DNA of 64,000 bases, taken from assembly GCA_963668715.1 (NCBI GenBank), contig OY764960.1, positions 2,511,602 through 2,575,601 of the forward strand, read 5' to 3'. Shown here in pieces: positions 5,843 to 48,752 of this stretch. Positions within the stretch are counted from its first letter, which is position 1. Every line of letters starts with the position of its first letter. The stretch is from Bacteroidales bacterium (lineage in GTDB: Bacteria; Bacteroidota; Bacteroidia; Bacteroidales; VadinHA17). Under the pieces are notes generated by a model that ran no database searches, was not told the DNA's origin, and saw only the letters and a program-made list of their open reading frames with translations. A program made the position numbers and the translations under genes.

Positions 5843-8227
5843 CTATTCTACTACCCATTCCTGTAAGCCGCAAGCACATTTCTTTTGTCTTTTTACAACC
5901 ATTTTCAACGAAGTGGTTTTTACCGGCTCAAAACGTACTTCATTATATCTCCGTTCTTCAGTGCCGTATTCATCCAGGTTATTAACAGGCTGCCATTCTT
6001 TATTATCATTGAGATATAACAGCTCCCATGATTCGGGAGGACGGCAACATGTCCAGGGTTGATCGTCGTACCATATAATCATGGTAAATGGCCTGTCATA
6101 CCAGTATACTTTGACAGAAGATACGGTTTCAGGTTTATTAAAAACATATTGAACCCAGCCTGTTGTATCTTTTAATGGCCATTTGTAATAGCCACATACC
6201 GGATTACACTGGAGATTTGAAACAAAACGCTGGTCATTTATGCTTTTAATAGTGACAGTATCATAGGAGGATAACACTTTGCTTGTTGCTGCAATAGTAG
6301 GTGACGGATCACGATGAGGTATGATAGCCCATTCTTTACAGGGTATCCATACGATCATCTCTGACGGTCCCCTGTTGGCCCACAGGTAATAAGGTATCGC
6401 CCTTACTTCCTGTTCATTCATTATGGGTTTATCATTACCCTGTTGTTCTCTGAAACTGTACCCTGTAGTATTAAGTACATATGTCCCGTCAAGCAGGTTA
6501 TCTTCTTTTTCTATACTGAAGGATGCTTCCGGTTTGATCATTATATTCTGAACATGGCCTTCTTTATTGTCCTGTCCCTCCAGACAGTATACGACAGGGC
6601 CTCTCTGAAGGGCCATTCTTCCCCTGTCAGCCACTACATTATTGTCGGCATATATTTTCATGACATCCATCGGAAGCTCCAGTTTGATTTCATCACCTGC
6701 AGACCATCTTCTTTCAAAGACCGCATAACCGTTTTCTTTATAATATTTTACAGGTTTCCCGTTAAGGCTTATCTTAACGTTATCTTTATGCTCGTTTTCA
6801 TAATAATAAAGGCCGGAAGGGAGAGGTTGTTTTTCTGCCCATCCGGGAATCCTTACCCTGACAGTGAATTTCCTGTTTTTTAACGGATCAACCTTTATAA
6901 TTATTTCTCCATCCCATGGATAGCCGGTTTCCTGCGATATCTCAACAGCTCCGTTTTTCAGATCCACCTTACTGCTGCTACCGATAAAGAGGTTTACATA
7001 CAGGTCATTCTCTTTATATGCGTAGATAAAACCCGGTATTTGTGGCATAAATCGTACAATGTTGGTAAGACAGCATGGGACACCATAGAATGAAGCCCTC
7101 TGGTATTCTCCGTTTGAAGCAAGTGGATTGGGATAGAAGAAACGGTCCCCGCTAATAGAAACACCGTCAAGGAGGCTGTTATAAAGAACCCTTTCAAGTA
7201 CATCAATATATGCAGCATCACCTTTTAGCCTGAACATACGGTCATTCCATAAGATGTCGGCTATTGAGGCACATGTCTCATTATAAGCTATTTCATTGGG
7301 AAGTTGGTAACGTTTGCCGAAAGCCTCATCATAATCGTATGATCCTGTGCCTCCGGTTATATATATTTTTGATCTTACCATGCTTTTCCATATGGTGTCG
7401 ATAGCCCTGGCGTATCCCCTGTCTCCTGTTAATGCTACAATATCTGTTACTCCGGAATAAAGATATAGCGCACGCACGGCATGACCGATTGGTTCTGTCT
7501 GGTCTGTTACTTTCTTATTCGATACCCCATATTCAGTCCCGTCAGGGCCCCTGGAATCGATAAAGAATTTTGAAAGTTCAAGATATTCCTTTTTACCTGT
7601 AGCGCGGTACAATTTCACCAAAGCCAGCTCTATTTCAGGGTGGAATGGGTAAGCTACAAGTTTGTCAGGCCCGAAAACAGACAATAGTAGTTGTGCATTT
7701 TTTTCAGCCATATCAAGCATGTCTTTTTTACCCGTTGCCTCATAATGAGCCACGGCAGCCTCAAACATATGCCCGGAAAAATACAGTTTATGACTACCGC
7801 CCGTTTCACCGAAATCCTCGCCCAGCCAGCGTAGTGAGTCCGGCATGGGTGTCCTGTTTGGTTTTGCCCCGGGGAACAACAGGTCGCCGTCGGGTTGCTG
7901 CGATTCCCTGACTATCTGAATAAGCTTATTTGCCATTGATTCCAGTTGAGGACTATCATCAGTCATCATATAATAGGATATACCCTCAAGTACTTTATAG
8001 AGACTCGATCCTCCCAGTCCGCCTTTATCCTCTAACTGTCCCAAAACAAAGGGAAGTGTAACATTCAGGTTTCGTTCTATCTTGTGATTCCAGAAAGCAT
8101 CCTTCATTTCTACTTCCGTAAAGTGTACGGGATGAATGGGATAATCCCTTTTTTCAGGTTGCCTGCTGCTTGTCATAACAGCAACAGGAATAAGTACCAT
8201 AATAAAATTAATAATGTTTCTTTTCAT
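5843..8227 (-). CDS. Glycoside hydrolase family 127 (DUF1680, beta-L-arabinofuranosidase-like), secreted
   Basis: 794 aa with a signal peptide. GH127-like segments: HKLYFSGHMFEAAVAHY, AYNETCASI, YGVPCCLTNIVRF (Cys cluster). An extra C-terminal beta-sandwich-like region is present. Confidence 0.8.
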   Translation of the reverse strand: MKRNIINFIMVLIPVAVMTSSRQPEKRDYPIHPVHFTEVEMKDAFWNHKIERNLNVTLPFVLGQLEDKGGLGGSSLYKVLEGISYYMMTDDSPQLESMANKLIQIVRESQQPDGDLLFPGAKPNRTPMPDSLRWLGEDFGETGGSHKLYFSGHMFEAAVAHYEATGKKDMLDMAEKNAQLLLSVFGPDKLVAYPFHPEIELALVKLYRATGKKEYLELSKFFIDSRGPDGTEYGVSNKKVTDQTEPIGHAVRALYLYSGVTDIVALTGDRGYARAIDTIWKSMVRSKIYITGGTGSYDYDEAFGKRYQLPNEIAYNETCASIADILWNDRMFRLKGDAAYIDVLERVLYNSLLDGVSISGDRFFYPNPLASNGEYQRASFYGVPCCLTNIVRFMPQIPGFIYAYKENDLYVNLFIGSSSKVDLKNGAVEISQETGYPWDGEIIIKVDPLKNRKFTVRVRIPGWAEKQPLPSGLYYYENEHKDNVKISLNGKPVKYYKENGYAVFERRWSAGDEIKLELPMDVMKIYADNNVVADRGRMALQRGPVVYCLEGQDNKEGHVQNIMIKPEASFSIEKEDNLLDGTYVLNTTGYSFREQQGNDKPIMNEQEVRAIPYYLWANRGPSEMIVWIPCKEWAIIPHRDPSPTIAATSKVLSSYDTVTIKSINDQRFVSNLQCNPVCGYYKWPLKDTTGWVQYVFNKPETVSSVKVYWYDRPFTMIIWYDDQPWTCCRPPESWELLYLNDNKEWQPVNNLDEYGTEERRYNEVRFEPVKTTSLKMVVKRQKKCACGLQEWVVE

Positions 8228-8400: not shown

Positions 8401-8582
8401 AAATATAGGGCTTTAGAGACAAAATAATTATGCTAAAAAGAATATTTGTCTTGTAATAAAAAATAAGTCGGCAGTCCACAATTCACAGTCCGCAATGTTA
8501 ATTGGTGTATAGCGTTAAACGTTCCGGGTTAAGCGTTCCGGGTTCCCTTGTCCCTTTTGCTGGTGCGGACGGAAAGAGATGG
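8401..8582. repeat. Mosaic intergenic repeat, locus B
   Basis: The 69-bp segment shared with locus A, then GGCAGTCCACAATTCACAGTCCGCAATGTTAATTGGTGTAT, then AGCGTTAAACGTTCC/GTTAAGCGTTCC words, then GTTCCCTTGTCCCTTTTGCTGGTGCGG. It ends in a truncated, arm-flipped hairpin core (GCGGACGGAAAGAGAT). Confidence 0.85.
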
Positions 8583-9980: not shown

Positions 9981-10219
9981 ATAACAAAGACGAACGGTTA
10001 GCCTCCAGTCGGCAATCTGCAGCCCACAGTCTTCAGTCGCAAGGTTTATTTGTTGAGCTGTTAAGTTGTTTATGTCTCGTTACTTATAACCTTCGCTGGC
10101 GCGGATCTCTCCCCGTCCGCCAAAGCTTCATCGTAGGCGGAAGATCCGTGCCTATCACTCACCATTCTCTATTATTCCATTACTCCATCGTTCCATTGTT
10201 CCAGTATTCCATCCTTCCT
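9981..10219. repeat. Mosaic intergenic repeat, locus C (with full hairpin core at 10095-10152)
   Basis: ATAACAAAGACGAACGGTTAGCC, then cagtc words, then GTTGAG/GTTAAG words. The core is GCTGGCGCGGATCTCTCCCCGTCCGCCAAAGCTTCATCGTAGGCGGAAGATCCGTGCC. A CATTCC/CCAT word array follows and abuts the stop codon at 10220. Confidence 0.9.
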
Positions 10220-11595: not shown

Positions 11596-12200
11596 ATAAC
11601 AAAAACGAACAGCTAACCCTTCGACAGGCCCTTCGATGGGCTCAGGACAAGCGACGAACGGCAAAAGACGAAAGACTAAAGACAAAAGGAAAAAGTCTAC
11701 AGTCTACAGTCCGCAGTCGGCAAATGTTAATTGGTATATTTGTTAGTTGGTTGATTGGTATATTCGTTTTATTTGAGTTGTGTTAGTTCATAGCTTTTTA
11801 GTTATTCAGTTAACAGTAATTCATTATCTCATCTCTCTGTCTTCTGTCTAATTCCTGATCCCTAATCCCCAGTCCCTTTTGTTGGTGCGGATCTCTCTCC
11901 GTCCGCCGCCTCCGTCGGCCATAGGTTGACTTCGGCGACCGGAGGCCGAAGCTTCAGCGCAGGCGGAAGATCCGTGCCTGTTCATATCTGTTAACCACTC
12001 ACCCATATAAATTCATTCTAAACTCATTCTTTCTCAACCTTGTAAACTATTTTCCCTTTAGTCTTTTGTCGTTAGCCTTTTGTCTTTATTGGTATAGGAA
12101 TGATTAATTAACAGGCATTTAATACTATATAAACTCATTTTAAACTCATTCTCAACTTTCTCAACCTTGTAAACTATTTTCTCTTTAGTCTTTTGTTTTT
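11596..12200. repeat. Mosaic intergenic repeat, locus D (largest composite; hairpin core at 11881-11978 with nested insert)
   Basis: Contains nearly every module: ATAACAAAAACGAACAGCTAACCC; the purine-rich GACGAAAGACTAAAGACAAAAGGAAAAAGTC; TACAGTC words; CAAATGTTAATTGGTATAT; GTTAG/GTTGA words; TAATCCC words; the core; the AAACTCATTCT..CTCAACCTTGTAAAC module twice (12020-12087 and 12141-12200), each followed by the pyrimidine-rich TTTAGTCTTTTGT end module. Confidence 0.9.
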
Positions 12201-33294: not shown

Positions 33295-33797
33295 AAAGAC
33301 AAAAGACTAACGACGAAAGGCTAAAGACAAAAGGAAAAAGTCTACAGTCTTCAGTCCACAGTCGGCAAATGTTGATTGATAGCGTTAAGCGTTCCGCGTT
33401 CCATGTTCCCTTGTCCCTTTTGTTGGTGCGGATCTACCTTGCTGGCGCGGATCTCCAGATCCGTGCCTTCTCATCCATCTCTCATCTCTATTCACCATTC
33501 ACTTTTTCACCGTGTGCCACCGTGATCCTCCGTGTCCACTGTGGTGAAATATATTATTTGTTTAAAAGTTGAGAAAGTTGAGAATGAGTTTAATGAGACG
33601 AAAGACTAACGACGAAAGACGAAAGGTTATTCAGGTTCTCCATCGTTAACGAATACACCAATACAAATTAATATTTCTGACGAATATTGCTCTGGTCCCT
33701 TTGCGCTTTGCAAATCAACATTGCGGACTGAGGACTGCCGATTGCCGACTACTCAGCATTCCATCATTCCATCATTCCATCATTCCATCATTCCATC
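33295..33797. repeat. Mosaic intergenic repeat, locus H (two elements in inverted orientation upstream of dnaB)
   Basis: The left half (33295-33545) has the purine-rich module, cagtc words, CAAATGTTGATTGAT, GTTAAGCGTTCC words, a collapsed core at 33422-33467 and CTCATC/TTCACC/CGTG words. The right half (33562-33797) carries the AAACTCATTCTCAAC, ggtgtattcg, aatgttgat and cagtc modules in reverse complement. It ends in 5 perfect CATTCCAT octamers (33757-33796). Confidence 0.9.
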
Positions 33798-46662: not shown

Positions 46663-47358
46663 TTAAAAGTTTAATCCTAATCTGAATCTGACCATACGGT
46701 GCCTTACCTTATCCTCCGGTTGCCCCTCATAGTCTTTTGTAACATCCAGGAAGTTATCCTCATAAACCAGTCCGGCAACAATAGCAGTTGAGCCTCCGAG
46801 CGAATATTCCATCCCGGCAGCCACGAAATATCCTAGGTTGAATATTTTGAGTTCTTCAGTAATATTTTCGTTATCAATATTTTGTGAAGGGATATTGCAT
46901 TTGCCGCCAATCACTGCCTTTGGATTCATCCCTACGTTGGAGAAAAATGTCATATAACCGATCTGGTTGGTCTTCAGTTTTATACCAATGGGAACAGAGA
47001 GATATTGTATCCTGTATACTATATTCTCACCTGCATTCAGAACGGTTTCGGAATTCTTCAGCCTTATATCTATAGTATCTGCATAGTTTAACCTTCCCGA
47101 TGCATTTATGATATTTATACCGGTAGAGAATGCATAGTTTTTCGCGAAATATGTGTCAAAAGACAAGCCAAAGGCAAAACCGGGTCTTGCACCGTCATTT
47201 AAGGTAGATCTTGTATCAGAAGAGAACCAGCTTATAAGAGGCTCTGTATATAATCCCAGTTGAATATTCTGTGATGATAATGTATTGCTTAACAATGGCA
47301 AAAAAACAACTGTTGCGATCAGTCGTATAAATATTGTTTTATTTTTTATTTTGCTCAT
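46663..47358 (-). CDS. Outer-membrane beta-barrel (porin-like / OMP_b-brl type) protein
   Basis: Signal peptide, alternating beta-strand pattern, and C-terminal LGLNF. Confidence 0.65.
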   Translation of the reverse strand: MSKIKNKTIFIRLIATVVFLPLLSNTLSSQNIQLGLYTEPLISWFSSDTRSTLNDGARPGFAFGLSFDTYFAKNYAFSTGINIINASGRLNYADTIDIRLKNSETVLNAGENIVYRIQYLSVPIGIKLKTNQIGYMTFFSNVGMNPKAVIGGKCNIPSQNIDNENITEELKIFNLGYFVAAGMEYSLGGSTAIVAGLVYEDNFLDVTKDYEGQPEDKVRHRMVRFRLGLNF

Positions 47359-47469
47359 ATTATGATATTTGCTATTAAGGCAGATTATTATTAATAAAGC
47401 GAATTAAAAATTCAAATATACAATTATACAAATATATCAGTTTAGTCCCGTTTAAGTAAATATTTCATG

Positions 47470-47670
47470 AACGACGAAAGACAAAAGGAAAAAGTCGGCA
47501 GTCCACAGTCCCTTTTGCTGGCGCGGATCTCTCTCCGTCCGCCAAAGCTTCAGCACAGGCGGAAGATCCGTGCCTAATCCCTGATTCCCAGTTCCTAATC
47601 CCTTCTCGTTTTGTCACTCGTCACTCGTCACTCGTCACCTGTTCACTTATTCACTATTCACTATTCACTA
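47470..47670. repeat. Mosaic intergenic repeat, locus I (compact; full hairpin core at 47517-47574)
   Basis: ACGACGAAAGACAAAAGGAAAAAGTCGGCAGTCCACAGTC. The core is CCCTTTTGCTGGCGCGGATCTCTCTCCGTCCGCCAAAGCTTCAGCACAGGCGGAAGATCCGTGCC. TAATCCC words follow, then TCACTCG x3 (47614-47634) and TTCACTAT words, ending 2 bp from the citC stop. Confidence 0.9.
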
Positions 47671-47672
47671 AC

Positions 47673-48752
47673 CTAATGTCGTGTATTCATCTTACGTATA
47701 TTTTCCTTTATTTCCTCAGCTTCTTCCGAAAGAAGGAAATTTTTGGTCACTTCGGGCAGGAAATCCAGATATTTATCCAACTCGTTATTTTTTATTGCTT
47801 CTCTTATCACAGAAGCACTTATATAATGTGATTCATTGTCAGCCACACTTTTTATCCTTTCCGTTTCAATTAGTTTTATCCCTTTTTCAGGCAGCAGTTT
47901 TTTCATTGCCTTATTATATGCTGCTGTTGTATTACAGTAATTCTCAGTTCCCACATAACGTTTGTTTATTCCGAGAACAGGAACAATATATTTGCGGAAA
48001 ATTTCTATATCCAGTTCACACTGCCCTGCAATACGTTCCTCCTCACCTGTCCCCTTAAGGAAATAGGAGGGAAATGTTTTACCGGAAACAATATAATCAC
48101 CGCCGGGTATCATAATTACATTATTGAGGTGAGAGATACCTTTACTTATGATTTCCCATCGTTTTTCGAAAGGAAAAACAGACAGATCTTCCTGCACTAC
48201 AAAAAGGTATACCCATTCATTTTCCCCGGAAGCTTTTTCAATGAGATATTTGTGCCCGTTTGTAAAAGGATTGCAGTTAACTACAATTGAAGCAATATCG
48301 TTTGTCCTCGCTGTTTGCTTATATACGGCAAGGTCATTTTGAAAATCGGTTATTGTTTTTGTTCCGAATTCCAGTAACGAATAATAAGGAGGAGCAGAGG
48401 CAATATGTTTAAATCCCAGTCCGCCAAAAACAACTTTGTTTTCCGGTTTGGTATATACAAATACTGTACGGTATTCAGGCACAATAAGACCTGTAAGATG
48501 TGATATGATTTTTGAAAAGGCGGAAGTGTCCCGGTATTTCTTTGTTACAGCCACATATTTAAGTACATTTTTTTGGGATGACCCTGTACCTATTATATCT
48601 CCCTTAAGGTTGTACAGTATGATTGTATAGTCTACGCTTTCAGGTTCAAAATCAAAATCCATCCCACTAAGAAAGCTTTTGACCAGTTTTATGTCATAAG
48701 GATTTTGACGATCAATAATTTCTTCTCTGTAATCGGTGTTTTCAATAATCAT
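47673..48752 (-). CDS. citC: [Citrate (pro-3S)-lyase] ligase
   Basis: N-terminal acetyltransferase-like domain plus a cytidylyltransferase-like domain (IVVNCNPFTNGHKYLIEKA). The stop codon abuts repeat locus I. Confidence 0.85.
   Translation of the reverse strand: MIIENTDYREEIIDRQNPYDIKLVKSFLSGMDFDFEPESVDYTIILYNLKGDIIGTGSSQKNVLKYVAVTKKYRDTSAFSKIISHLTGLIVPEYRTVFVYTKPENKVVFGGLGFKHIASAPPYYSLLEFGTKTITDFQNDLAVYKQTARTNDIASIVVNCNPFTNGHKYLIEKASGENEWVYLFVVQEDLSVFPFEKRWEIISKGISHLNNVIMIPGGDYIVSGKTFPSYFLKGTGEEERIAGQCELDIEIFRKYIVPVLGINKRYVGTENYCNTTAAYNKAMKKLLPEKGIKLIETERIKSVADNESHYISASVIREAIKNNELDKYLDFLPEVTKNFLLSEEAEEIKENIRKMNTRH

Follow-up and report, generated by a model that had tools for sequence, protein, structure and literature searches.

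The 58-nucleotide (nt) repeat core at locus I of a 64,000-nt stretch of Bacteroidales DNA (the window; C1:2511602-2575601) belongs to a modular repeat that is restricted to one genus of uncultured Bacteroidales, and it represents the long form of that repeat. We consider it about 80% probable that this repeat is the repetitive extragenic palindrome (REP) of a system of REPs and a REP-associated tyrosine transposase (RAYT) that is confined to one genus of uncultured Bacteroidales, and that it has been orphaned in the genome that carries the window. REP/RAYT systems are well studied in Proteobacteria. The repeat described here is a known kind in a little-studied group, and its unusual points are its nested long form and its polarity with respect to replication. 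The genome that carries the window, referred to below as the host genome, is a complete, single contig of 4.27 Mb with a G+C content of 40.3%.

The repeat comes in a short and a long form, with a total of ~36 loci in the host genome, all of them extragenic. The short form (~18 loci) is a 27-nt basal unit, GCTGGCGCGGATCT-CC-AGATCCGTGCC, in which an unpaired GCT, part of a GCTGG tag, is followed by a stem of 11 bp that includes one G·T pair and is closed by a CC loop. The long form (~18 loci; 57 to 61 nt) has the same outer stem as the basal unit, and within that stem are inserted a 7-nt bulge (CTCTCCG), an inner stem (TCCGCC/GGCGGA), and a 14-nt variable apical region that forms a mini-hairpin. 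Stacks, in which 5' half-copies stand ahead of a full copy, are frequent genome-wide. A first-pass annotation of the window, made from the sequence alone, had described the core as a bulged hairpin, and the predicted folds agree with that description. The RNA of locus I folds into a bulged two-tier hairpin on both the plus strand (-30.3 kcal/mol; z = -4.3) and the minus strand (z = -3.9), and plus-strand DNA is also predicted to form a bulged hairpin (-17.4 kcal/mol; z = -4.3).

RAYT genes between inverted copies of the repeat

A search of the genus for Y1 transposases revealed RAYT open reading frames (ORFs) between inverted copies of the element in three sister species (G007, G010, and G006). 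The RAYT locus is syntenic in all three, between uvrB and trxB, which are convergent in G007 and G006. The RAYT of G007 is a 186-amino-acid (aa) ORF (L051, 7277-7837) with the motifs IMPDHSHMV (HSH) and YIHSNPVKAGLV. A block of REPs that begins with the consensus sequence GCTGGCGCGGATCTCCAGATCCGTGCC (7046-7072, plus strand) is located upstream of this ORF, and the exact inverse of the consensus copy (7845-7871, minus strand) is located directly downstream. The layout in G010 and G006 is alike, with stacks of half-copies on one side of the RAYT gene and between one and three inverted copies on the opposite side. It is this placement of a RAYT gene between inverted copies that defines a REP/RAYT system.

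The RAYT ORFs, which are 186 to 188 aa in length, scored 113 to 116 bits with the NCBIfam model NF047646, “REP-associated tyrosine transposase” (cutoff, 80 bits), and also matched the Pfam family Y1_Tnp (E = 1e-9). They contain the HxH and YIHxNP motifs, and the only solved relative of these proteins, the TnpA-REP protein of Escherichia coli (4ER8), could be aligned with them at the HUH and tyrosine motifs.

A RAYT paralogue with 44% identity is found in G001 and G012, where it is flanked by the hairpin GCTGGTGTTGATCT-CC-AGATCAACGCC. This hairpin has four stem differences, all of which preserve pairing. Judging from these sequences, repeat and protein covary, with the paralogous RAYT accompanied by a hairpin variant of its own. 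There are at least three RAYT lineages in the genus, each with its own hairpin: GCTGGCGCGGATCT.., GCTGGTGTTGATCT.., and GTGGGGCTTAGCCCCAC, as seen from loci L081 and L082 in G001 and G012 and L083 in G004.

This association makes it improbable, although less so than the other alternatives considered below, that the element is a RAYT-independent small repeat similar to those of Nostoc, which multiplies by template switching or slippage in tandem arrays and whose copies next to RAYT genes are incidental. Inverted copies are present on both sides of the RAYT gene at one syntenic locus in three species, and the probability of such flanking by chance is ~1e-5 per genome (with 20 to 30 copies per 3.4 Mb). 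The paralogous RAYT with its own covarying hairpin also argues against independence, as does the fact that the element has an orientation bias whereas the arrays do not (292:309). The proximity of 33 of the 36 copies to arrays with a period of 6 to 16 nt (within 120 nt), the commonness of nesting and of 5' half-copies, and the lack of a cognate RAYT call in most element-bearing genomes are the observations that such a repeat would explain.

Distribution of the repeat

The 27-nt unit was detected in 11 of the genus's 16 genomes, the 25 other genera of the order were all negative, and a reversed control pattern gave no matches in this search. The element is absent from the remaining 5 genomes of the genus. 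Public genomes contained 55 exact matches, all in metagenome-assembled genomes of uncultured Bacteroidales or Bacteroidota, one of which is labeled Flavobacteriales.

Nine of the 20 regions taken around copies in G007 were cut by a contig end (L169-L188), and many copies in this genome are within ~10 kb of a contig end, several of them within ~60 nt. The repeats may be places where, or close to where, assemblies break, and copy numbers from draft genomes may be underestimated.

Conservation across the genus and drift in the host genome

Covariation was evaluated with 63 distinct copies from the genus, collected with a search that allowed up to three mismatches and supplemented with six variants read from loci. 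Double-sided changes were detected in 6 of the 11 pairs of the outer stem (30 cells), a value that none of 500 shuffles reached, and slid registers gave only 2 to 9 cells. Compensated variants of GGATCT/AGATCC include GGTTCT/AGAACC, GGGTCT/AGACCC, GAGTCT/AGACTC, and GTTGATCT/AGATCAAC, and further double-sided variants, GCCGATCT/AGATCGG and GCTTGC../..GCA, are also recurrent. In the alignment of long forms, compensated changes between species were also seen in the apical mini-helix; the inner stem did not covary. The same three-tier long forms, with other apical loops, are found in G001, G002 (two copies), G006, and G010, so that five species have long forms. Within the tag, T3 does not vary and the conservation of G1, C2, and G4 is 90% or higher, and 46 of the 63 variants have the G·T pair.

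The copies in the host genome behave differently. Among its long forms (n = 14), the apical region had 0.082 differences per nt per copy, compared to 0.039 for the outer stem, 0.012 for the inner stem, and 0.010 for the bulge, and the difference in substitution rate between stem and non-stem positions in this genome was not significant (p = 0.07). The 14 changed pairs of the outer and inner stems comprise 8 broken pairs and 6 wobble pairs, and none is compensated. Considered together, the covariation across the genus and the uncompensated changes in the host genome indicate that the structure is kept at the genus level and that the copies here are drifting. The first-pass annotation had proposed, from the copies in the window, that the stems are invariant and that the structure is what is maintained. 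Invariance of the stems holds for the three full copies in the window but not genome-wide, where the outer stem has 12 differences among the 14 long forms, and maintenance of the structure is borne out across the genus, in the outer stem and the apical helix, but not in the host genome.

The lack of compensation also bears on whether the element functions as a structured RNA, which is probably not so; a small RNA, a stabilizer or terminator in a 3' untranslated region, or a cis-regulatory leader under selection at the RNA level is very unlikely. The RNA fold at locus I is very stable, and the G·U on the plus strand is a legitimate RNA pair. In addition, Di Nocera et al. 2013 (PMC3733652) argue for transcription of many REPs and for a role of these at the RNA level. 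However, there were no Rfam matches in the whole window at the gathering score, and copies are truncated, stacked, and nested in the manner of mobile DNA. The orientation of the copies is also independent of the flanking genes, as the first-pass annotation had noted for the window: in the host genome it matches that of the upstream gene at 17 of 36 loci and that of the downstream gene at 22 of 36, and all four gene arrangements are used, including 13 divergent spacers. An intrinsic terminator was rejected because there is no T-run on either strand and no terminator call at any copy in the window.

Orientation with respect to replication

In the cumulative GC skew of the host genome, the origin of replication falls at ~1.60 Mb and the terminus at ~3.75 Mb. 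The top strand of the element (GCTGG...) is on the leading-strand sequence at 29 of 36 orientable loci (binomial p = 3e-4), and the orientation switches at both skew extremes. Crude ORF calls, which were used for gene positions, indicated that 54.5% of genes are co-oriented with replication. The orientation of the neighboring arrays was rejected as the source of the element's bias, the arrays being unbiased. The polarity is real in the host genome. The earlier observation that all five copies in the window are on the plus strand is correct for the window, as a local feature of its replichore; genome-wide, both orientations are used and the change occurs at the skew extremes. The correlation with replication could not be reproduced for the relatives when a local GC-skew proxy was used. 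The lagging-strand template is the source of single-stranded DNA for the Y1 transposases of the IS200/IS605 family (PMC6006769, PMC3333891). Because the parental strand that carries the leading-strand sequence is the lagging-strand template, the polarity fits a mechanism that acts on single-stranded DNA.

A polar DNA site selected by the host, such as a binding or cruciform site for a chromosome-organizing or fork-associated protein that was kept after loss of the RAYT, would account for the switch in orientation at both skew extremes, for the persistence of ~36 copies without a transposase, and for the low variability of the bulge and inner stem (0.010 to 0.012 differences per nt per copy). 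Little probability is assigned to this explanation, for 5 of the 16 genomes of the genus manage without the element, the ~36 copies are few and unevenly spaced, stem-breaking substitutions and truncated and half-copies are found, and the polarity was not seen in relatives. That the element is an attC-type site for recombination in an integron-like cassette system is scarcely credible. Its two stems, the unpaired bases on one side, and the variable length of the terminal structure give it the right general shape, but the RYYYAAC/GTTRRRY boxes are absent from the sequence, the copies stand singly in ordinary intergenic spacers rather than at cassette boundaries beside an integrase, with most of the copies checked lying away from cassette junctions, and the repeat is associated in relatives with a transposase of the Y1 HUH type rather than with a tyrosine recombinase.

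Loss of the RAYT from the host genome

No RAYT scored above the NF047646 cutoff in the host genome, and the G007 RAYT had no homologue there by tblastn. The 740-nt gap between uvrB and trxB in the host genome contains a perfect palindrome, GCTAGCGCGGATCTGGAGATCCGCGCTAGC (genome positions 3330045-3330074), with the tag on both strands. The same gap also contains an unrelated small ORF bracketed by CCCCTCCTTTTTAAAGGAGGGG hairpins. Other genomes of the genus have the RAYT site in further states: in G014 there is a hybrid scar (a GGATCT arm versus an AGACCC arm), and in G001 and G012 the site is empty, with only 22 to 28 nt. A palindrome with the tag on both strands corresponds to the “double foot,” which, as Quentin et al. 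2018 (PMC6006769) propose, can originate when a deletion takes place between two REPs in inverted orientation. The presence of a double-foot palindrome at the RAYT site, considered with that proposed origin, suggests that the RAYT of the host genome was probably deleted by recombination between its flanking inverted REPs, leaving the palindrome behind.

The small ORF (MKYRSNKKSLKETRQYLR...) occupies the RAYT site of the relatives both in the host genome (C1:3329343-3330083) and in G004 (locus L160). It is bracketed by palindromes of the CCCCTCCTTTTTAAAGGAGGGG type, and the host copy is also accompanied by a duplicated piece of the 3' end of uvrB. Its product may resemble DUF559-type endonucleases, and the whole looks like another small mobile unit at the same spot.

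The host genome does have other Y1-like genes, two of them IS200-like and three of them copies of a 180-aa gene, and no copy of the element was found beside any of these. The three near-identical copies of the 180-aa gene (C1:1057012-1057461, 2758125-2758574, and 2760708-2761157) contain the motifs PDHVHGII ... YICDNP and scored 51 bits with NF047646, which is below the cutoff. A related palindrome, GGGCCGTTGCATGCAACGGCCC, adjoins two hairpin loci (2019172 and 2166036). This gene and palindrome fit the “REP inserted within tnpAREP” of subclass 2.4, as that subclass is outlined in Quentin et al. 2018.

Several observations weigh against the interpretation of the element as an orphaned REP. The host genome is without a cognate RAYT, and nothing there is demonstrably acting on the copies. 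A cognate RAYT was called in only 3 of the 11 element-bearing genomes, several of which are incomplete. No empty site was found for the dispersed copies because the species are too diverged (the neighboring protein is at most 72% identical). According to local GC skew, a proxy that is correct 72 to 81% of the time in the host genome, only 22 of 51 loci in relatives have the expected sign of replication polarity, and in the RAYT-bearing G007 only 8 of 22 do. The inner stem, TCCGCC/GGCGGA, is invariant in the long-form alignment, which is conservation of sequence with zero covariation. The tag of the repeat is GCTG(G) in all subfamilies, unlike the tags of the GTAG/CGTC-tagged REP superfamilies (Di Nocera et al. 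2013), and the copies in the host genome are singlets or same-strand stacks of 5' halves, unlike the inverted doublets of Pseudomonas REPINs, which have been argued to be the mobile unit; only one inverted pair was seen, with the copies 84 nt apart, in G002.

Copies in the window, nesting, and surroundings

The copies in the window and the parts of locus I are listed in Table 1. The sequences reported by the first-pass annotation for loci I, C, and D are present at those positions. Loci I and C differ at 4 of 58 positions, one of which is in the 5' bulge (T/C, position 18) and three of which are in the apical region (CAGCACA versus CATCGTA), and the arms CGGATCT...TCCGCC / GGCGGA-AGATCCG are identical across C, D, and I. 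The window contains three occurrences of each arm pattern, compared to an expectation of 0.00 (100 shuffles). The outermost part of locus D is GTTGGTG rather than GCTGGCG as in the others, and one of the changes turns a C-G pair into T·G. Five core-derived copies had been counted in the window, but only C, D, and I are full; B is a remnant, and H consists of a half-copy and the short form.

Table 1. Positions in the window of the copies of the repeat, of the parts of locus I, and of its flanks
Feature	Position	Strand	Remarks
Locus I, long-form REP, 58 nt	47517-47574	+	Assigned by sequence, fold, and family membership
Locus I, tag GCT	47517-47519	+	
Locus I, outer 5' arm GGCGCGGATCT	47520-47530	+	
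Locus I, bulge CTCTCCG	47531-47537	+	
Locus I, inner 5' arm TCCGCC	47538-47543	+	
Locus I, apical region AAAGCTTCAGCACA	47544-47557	+	
Locus I, inner 3' arm GGCGGA	47558-47563	+	
Locus I, outer 3' arm AGATCCGTGCC	47564-47574	+	
Locus I, upstream flank	47469-47516	+	Decayed heptamer-type array that ends in CAGTCCCTTTT
Locus I, downstream flank	47575-47670	+	Arrays with a 7-nt period: TAATCCC type, GTCACTC x3, TTCACTA x3
Locus C, long-form REP, 58 nt	10095-10152	+	Four differences from locus I, in bulge or apical region only
Locus D, long-form REP, 98 nt	11881-11978	+	With nested 40-nt hairpin
Locus D, nested insert GCCTCCGTCGGCCATAGGTTGACTTCGGCGACCGGAGGCC	11908-11947	+	Core common to 11 stand-alone copies of family X
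Locus H, short-form REP, 27 nt, GCTGGCGCGGATCTCCAGATCCGTGCC	33441-33467	+	Equals the genus consensus exactly
Locus H, 5' half-copy GTTGGTGCGGATCTACCTT	33422-33440	+	Directly 5' of the short form; like the stacking beside the G006 RAYT gene
Locus B, truncated 11-nt 5' remnant GCTGGTGCGGA	8559-8569	+	Preceded by the usual CCCTTGTCCCTTTT flank

The 40-nt insert of locus D follows CCGCC and is found in four copies, whole or with part missing, and in one more copy just the first 20 nt of it remain. What the partial inserts lack is a segment bounded by 3-nt direct repeats. The opposite relation is seen in relatives, in which a short REP is often located in the loop of a longer hairpin, such as TCCACC-TTC-[REP]-TAGCTAC-GGTGGA or CACCCC-[REP]-GCGGGG, and complete nests of a REP within a REP, with the outer 3' arm, are present at L021, L049, and L054. 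In the host genome, it is the TCCGCC/GGCGGA frame that is inside the REP. In family X, TCCGCC is preceded by CTTCTCG, a sequence similar to the bulge CTCTCCG, and on the basis of this similarity the bulge may be an orphaned half of the lower stem of the frame. No empty outer hairpin frames were found in relatives in ~1 Mb of loci.

It is conceivable, although doubtful, that, on the lagging-strand template, the single-stranded loops of other hairpins are the preferred targets into which the RAYTs of Bacteroidales insert REPs. In that case two hairpin families would nest both ways, with the REP inside a TCCACC/GGTGGA-type frame in relatives and with that frame and family X inside the REP in the host genome, repeated nesting would build multi-tier elements of 58 to 98 nt, and the strong polarity in the host genome would be a frozen record of strand-specific insertion. 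If this were true, the genus would provide a natural system in which the strand and target rules of REP mobility could be read.

Family X, to which the insert belongs, is a ~75-nt repeat (...CTTCTCGTCCGCC GCCTCCGTCGGCCATAGGTTGACTTCGGCGACCGGAGGCC GAAGCGGAACGCGAAGGAGGATTAAA) with 11 stand-alone copies, found in the host genome only (C1 positions 491536, 698932, 1231019, 1635711, 1749370, 3095170, 3220657, 3280395, 3799028, 3945988, and 4197058). These copies usually have ATTAAA on both sides and are located 24 to 184 nt upstream of a gene. Eight family X loci gave no Rfam matches at E ≤ 1. A conserved riboswitch-like leader was rejected as an explanation for family X, because the stand-alone copies fold no better than shuffled sequences (z = -0.1 to -1.3) and the family is found in one genome only.

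Most copies of the REP are preceded by a pyrimidine-rich junction, CAGTCCCTTTT. Copies are situated within mosaics of decayed 7- to 8-nt tandem repeats, as in the window at 11596-11880, 33295-33420, 47469-47516, and 47575-47670. The repeat unit of these arrays drifts stepwise (AAAGACG, AAAGACT, AAAGGAA, AAAGTCT, ACAGTCT, ACAGTCC...). Genome-wide, TRF found 1,225 non-overlapping arrays with a period of 7, 8, 14, 15, 16, or 21, and these have no replication-strand bias, as noted above.

Locus I is at a break in synteny (window positions 47359-47672). Here the gene at 46663-47358 adjoins the end of the gene at 47673-48752, whereas in all 15 relatives the homologue of the former and a small lipoprotein-like gene are divergent neighbors, and the short spacer between them lacks the element. 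The boundary of the insertion is unreadable because of the broken synteny at this locus.

Proposed mechanism and significance

In the mechanism that we propose for the REP, the working unit is the 27-nt hairpin, which has a conserved unpaired 5' tag and the two strands of which are made unequal by the G·T mismatch. The top strand would fold as single-stranded DNA and would be bound and cut and joined by the RAYT, a small HUH/Y1 tyrosine transposase. The recognition hairpin most probably acts as single-stranded DNA. Through the action of the RAYT, both intergenic DNA and the loops of other hairpins would acquire copies. In the long form, the outer REP stem clamps the second, conserved stem, TCCGCC/GGCGGA, with the bulge CTCTCCG as its unpaired 5' neighbor and with the variable apical hairpin. 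Once the RAYT had been lost from the host genome, the ~36 copies would have become immobile relics that drift by uncompensated point mutation.

The genus provides a readable example of a REP/RAYT system in Bacteroidales, with the tag, stem, mismatch, short and long forms, and two RAYT paralogues with covarying hairpins, and the RAYT locus is available in occupied, empty, and scarred states. It offers a natural experiment on the fate of REPs after loss of their RAYT and on a possible strand specificity of REP insertion at the replication fork. For annotation, the REP explains the “conserved core” of the mosaic intergenic repeats in the host genome and cautions against treating that core as an RNA gene.

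Comparison with known systems

Subclass 2.6 of the TnpA-Y1 proteins, which is equivalent to RAYT group 5 of Bertels et al. 2017, is described in the subclass table of Quentin et al. as mostly from Bacteroidetes, with a mean length of ~179 aa and the motifs NH[LIV]H, WQ, and YIH[QN]NP, and the account of its flanking structures given there mentions only “atypical secondary structures,” recognized by manual inspection (Quentin et al. 2018, PMC6006769). When their motifs are compared with that published table only, the RAYTs of the genus resemble subclass 2.6 in phylum, in size (186 to 188 aa versus a mean of 179 aa), and in their WQ and YIH[QN]NP-type motifs. The cognate RAYT has DH[SF]H, along with WQ and YIH[SN]NP, unlike the NH[LIV]H listed for the subclass, whereas the paralogue of G001 and G012, with NHIH, WQ, and YIHNNP, is like it.

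The SDR elements of Nostoc punctiforme in heptamer arrays (STRR), compared by description only, are similar in that they are very small hairpin repeats, nest mutually, and are embedded in heptamer-type arrays. That description reportedly goes back to Elhai et al. 2008, and SDR is mentioned in Bertels 2011 as well. The SDR elements differ from the repeat of the Bacteroidales in that they belong to a different phylum and that a RAYT link for them is unmentioned in Bertels 2011.

The subterminal hairpins of IS200/IS605 elements (IS608 and ISDra2) are like the REP in having a guide sequence 5' of the foot and in the recognition of one strand of single-stranded DNA. The coupling of these elements to the lagging-strand template is a further similarity, which would explain the polarity in the host genome. 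Unlike IS200/IS605, the repeat has no transposase or cargo between left and right ends; a single hairpin is dispersed alone.

Several features are shared with the REP-BIME/TnpA-REP system of E. coli and the REPIN-RAYT system of Pseudomonas fluorescens. Like the REPs of these systems, the element is a short, extragenic, imperfect palindrome in tens of copies, in which the stem foot is preceded on its 5' side by a conserved tag that is unpaired and a stem mismatch distinguishes the strands, and binding by TnpA-REP of E. coli requires both the 5' tag and the stem mismatch (PMC3333891). The systems also have in common a single-copy Y1 HUH gene with inverted flanking copies (“REPtron”) and co-variation of hairpin and transposase. 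Unlike the REPs of E. coli and P. fluorescens, the copies are not depleted from divergent spacers, the transposase has been lost in the host genome, and the long form has two or three tiers with a nested second stem.

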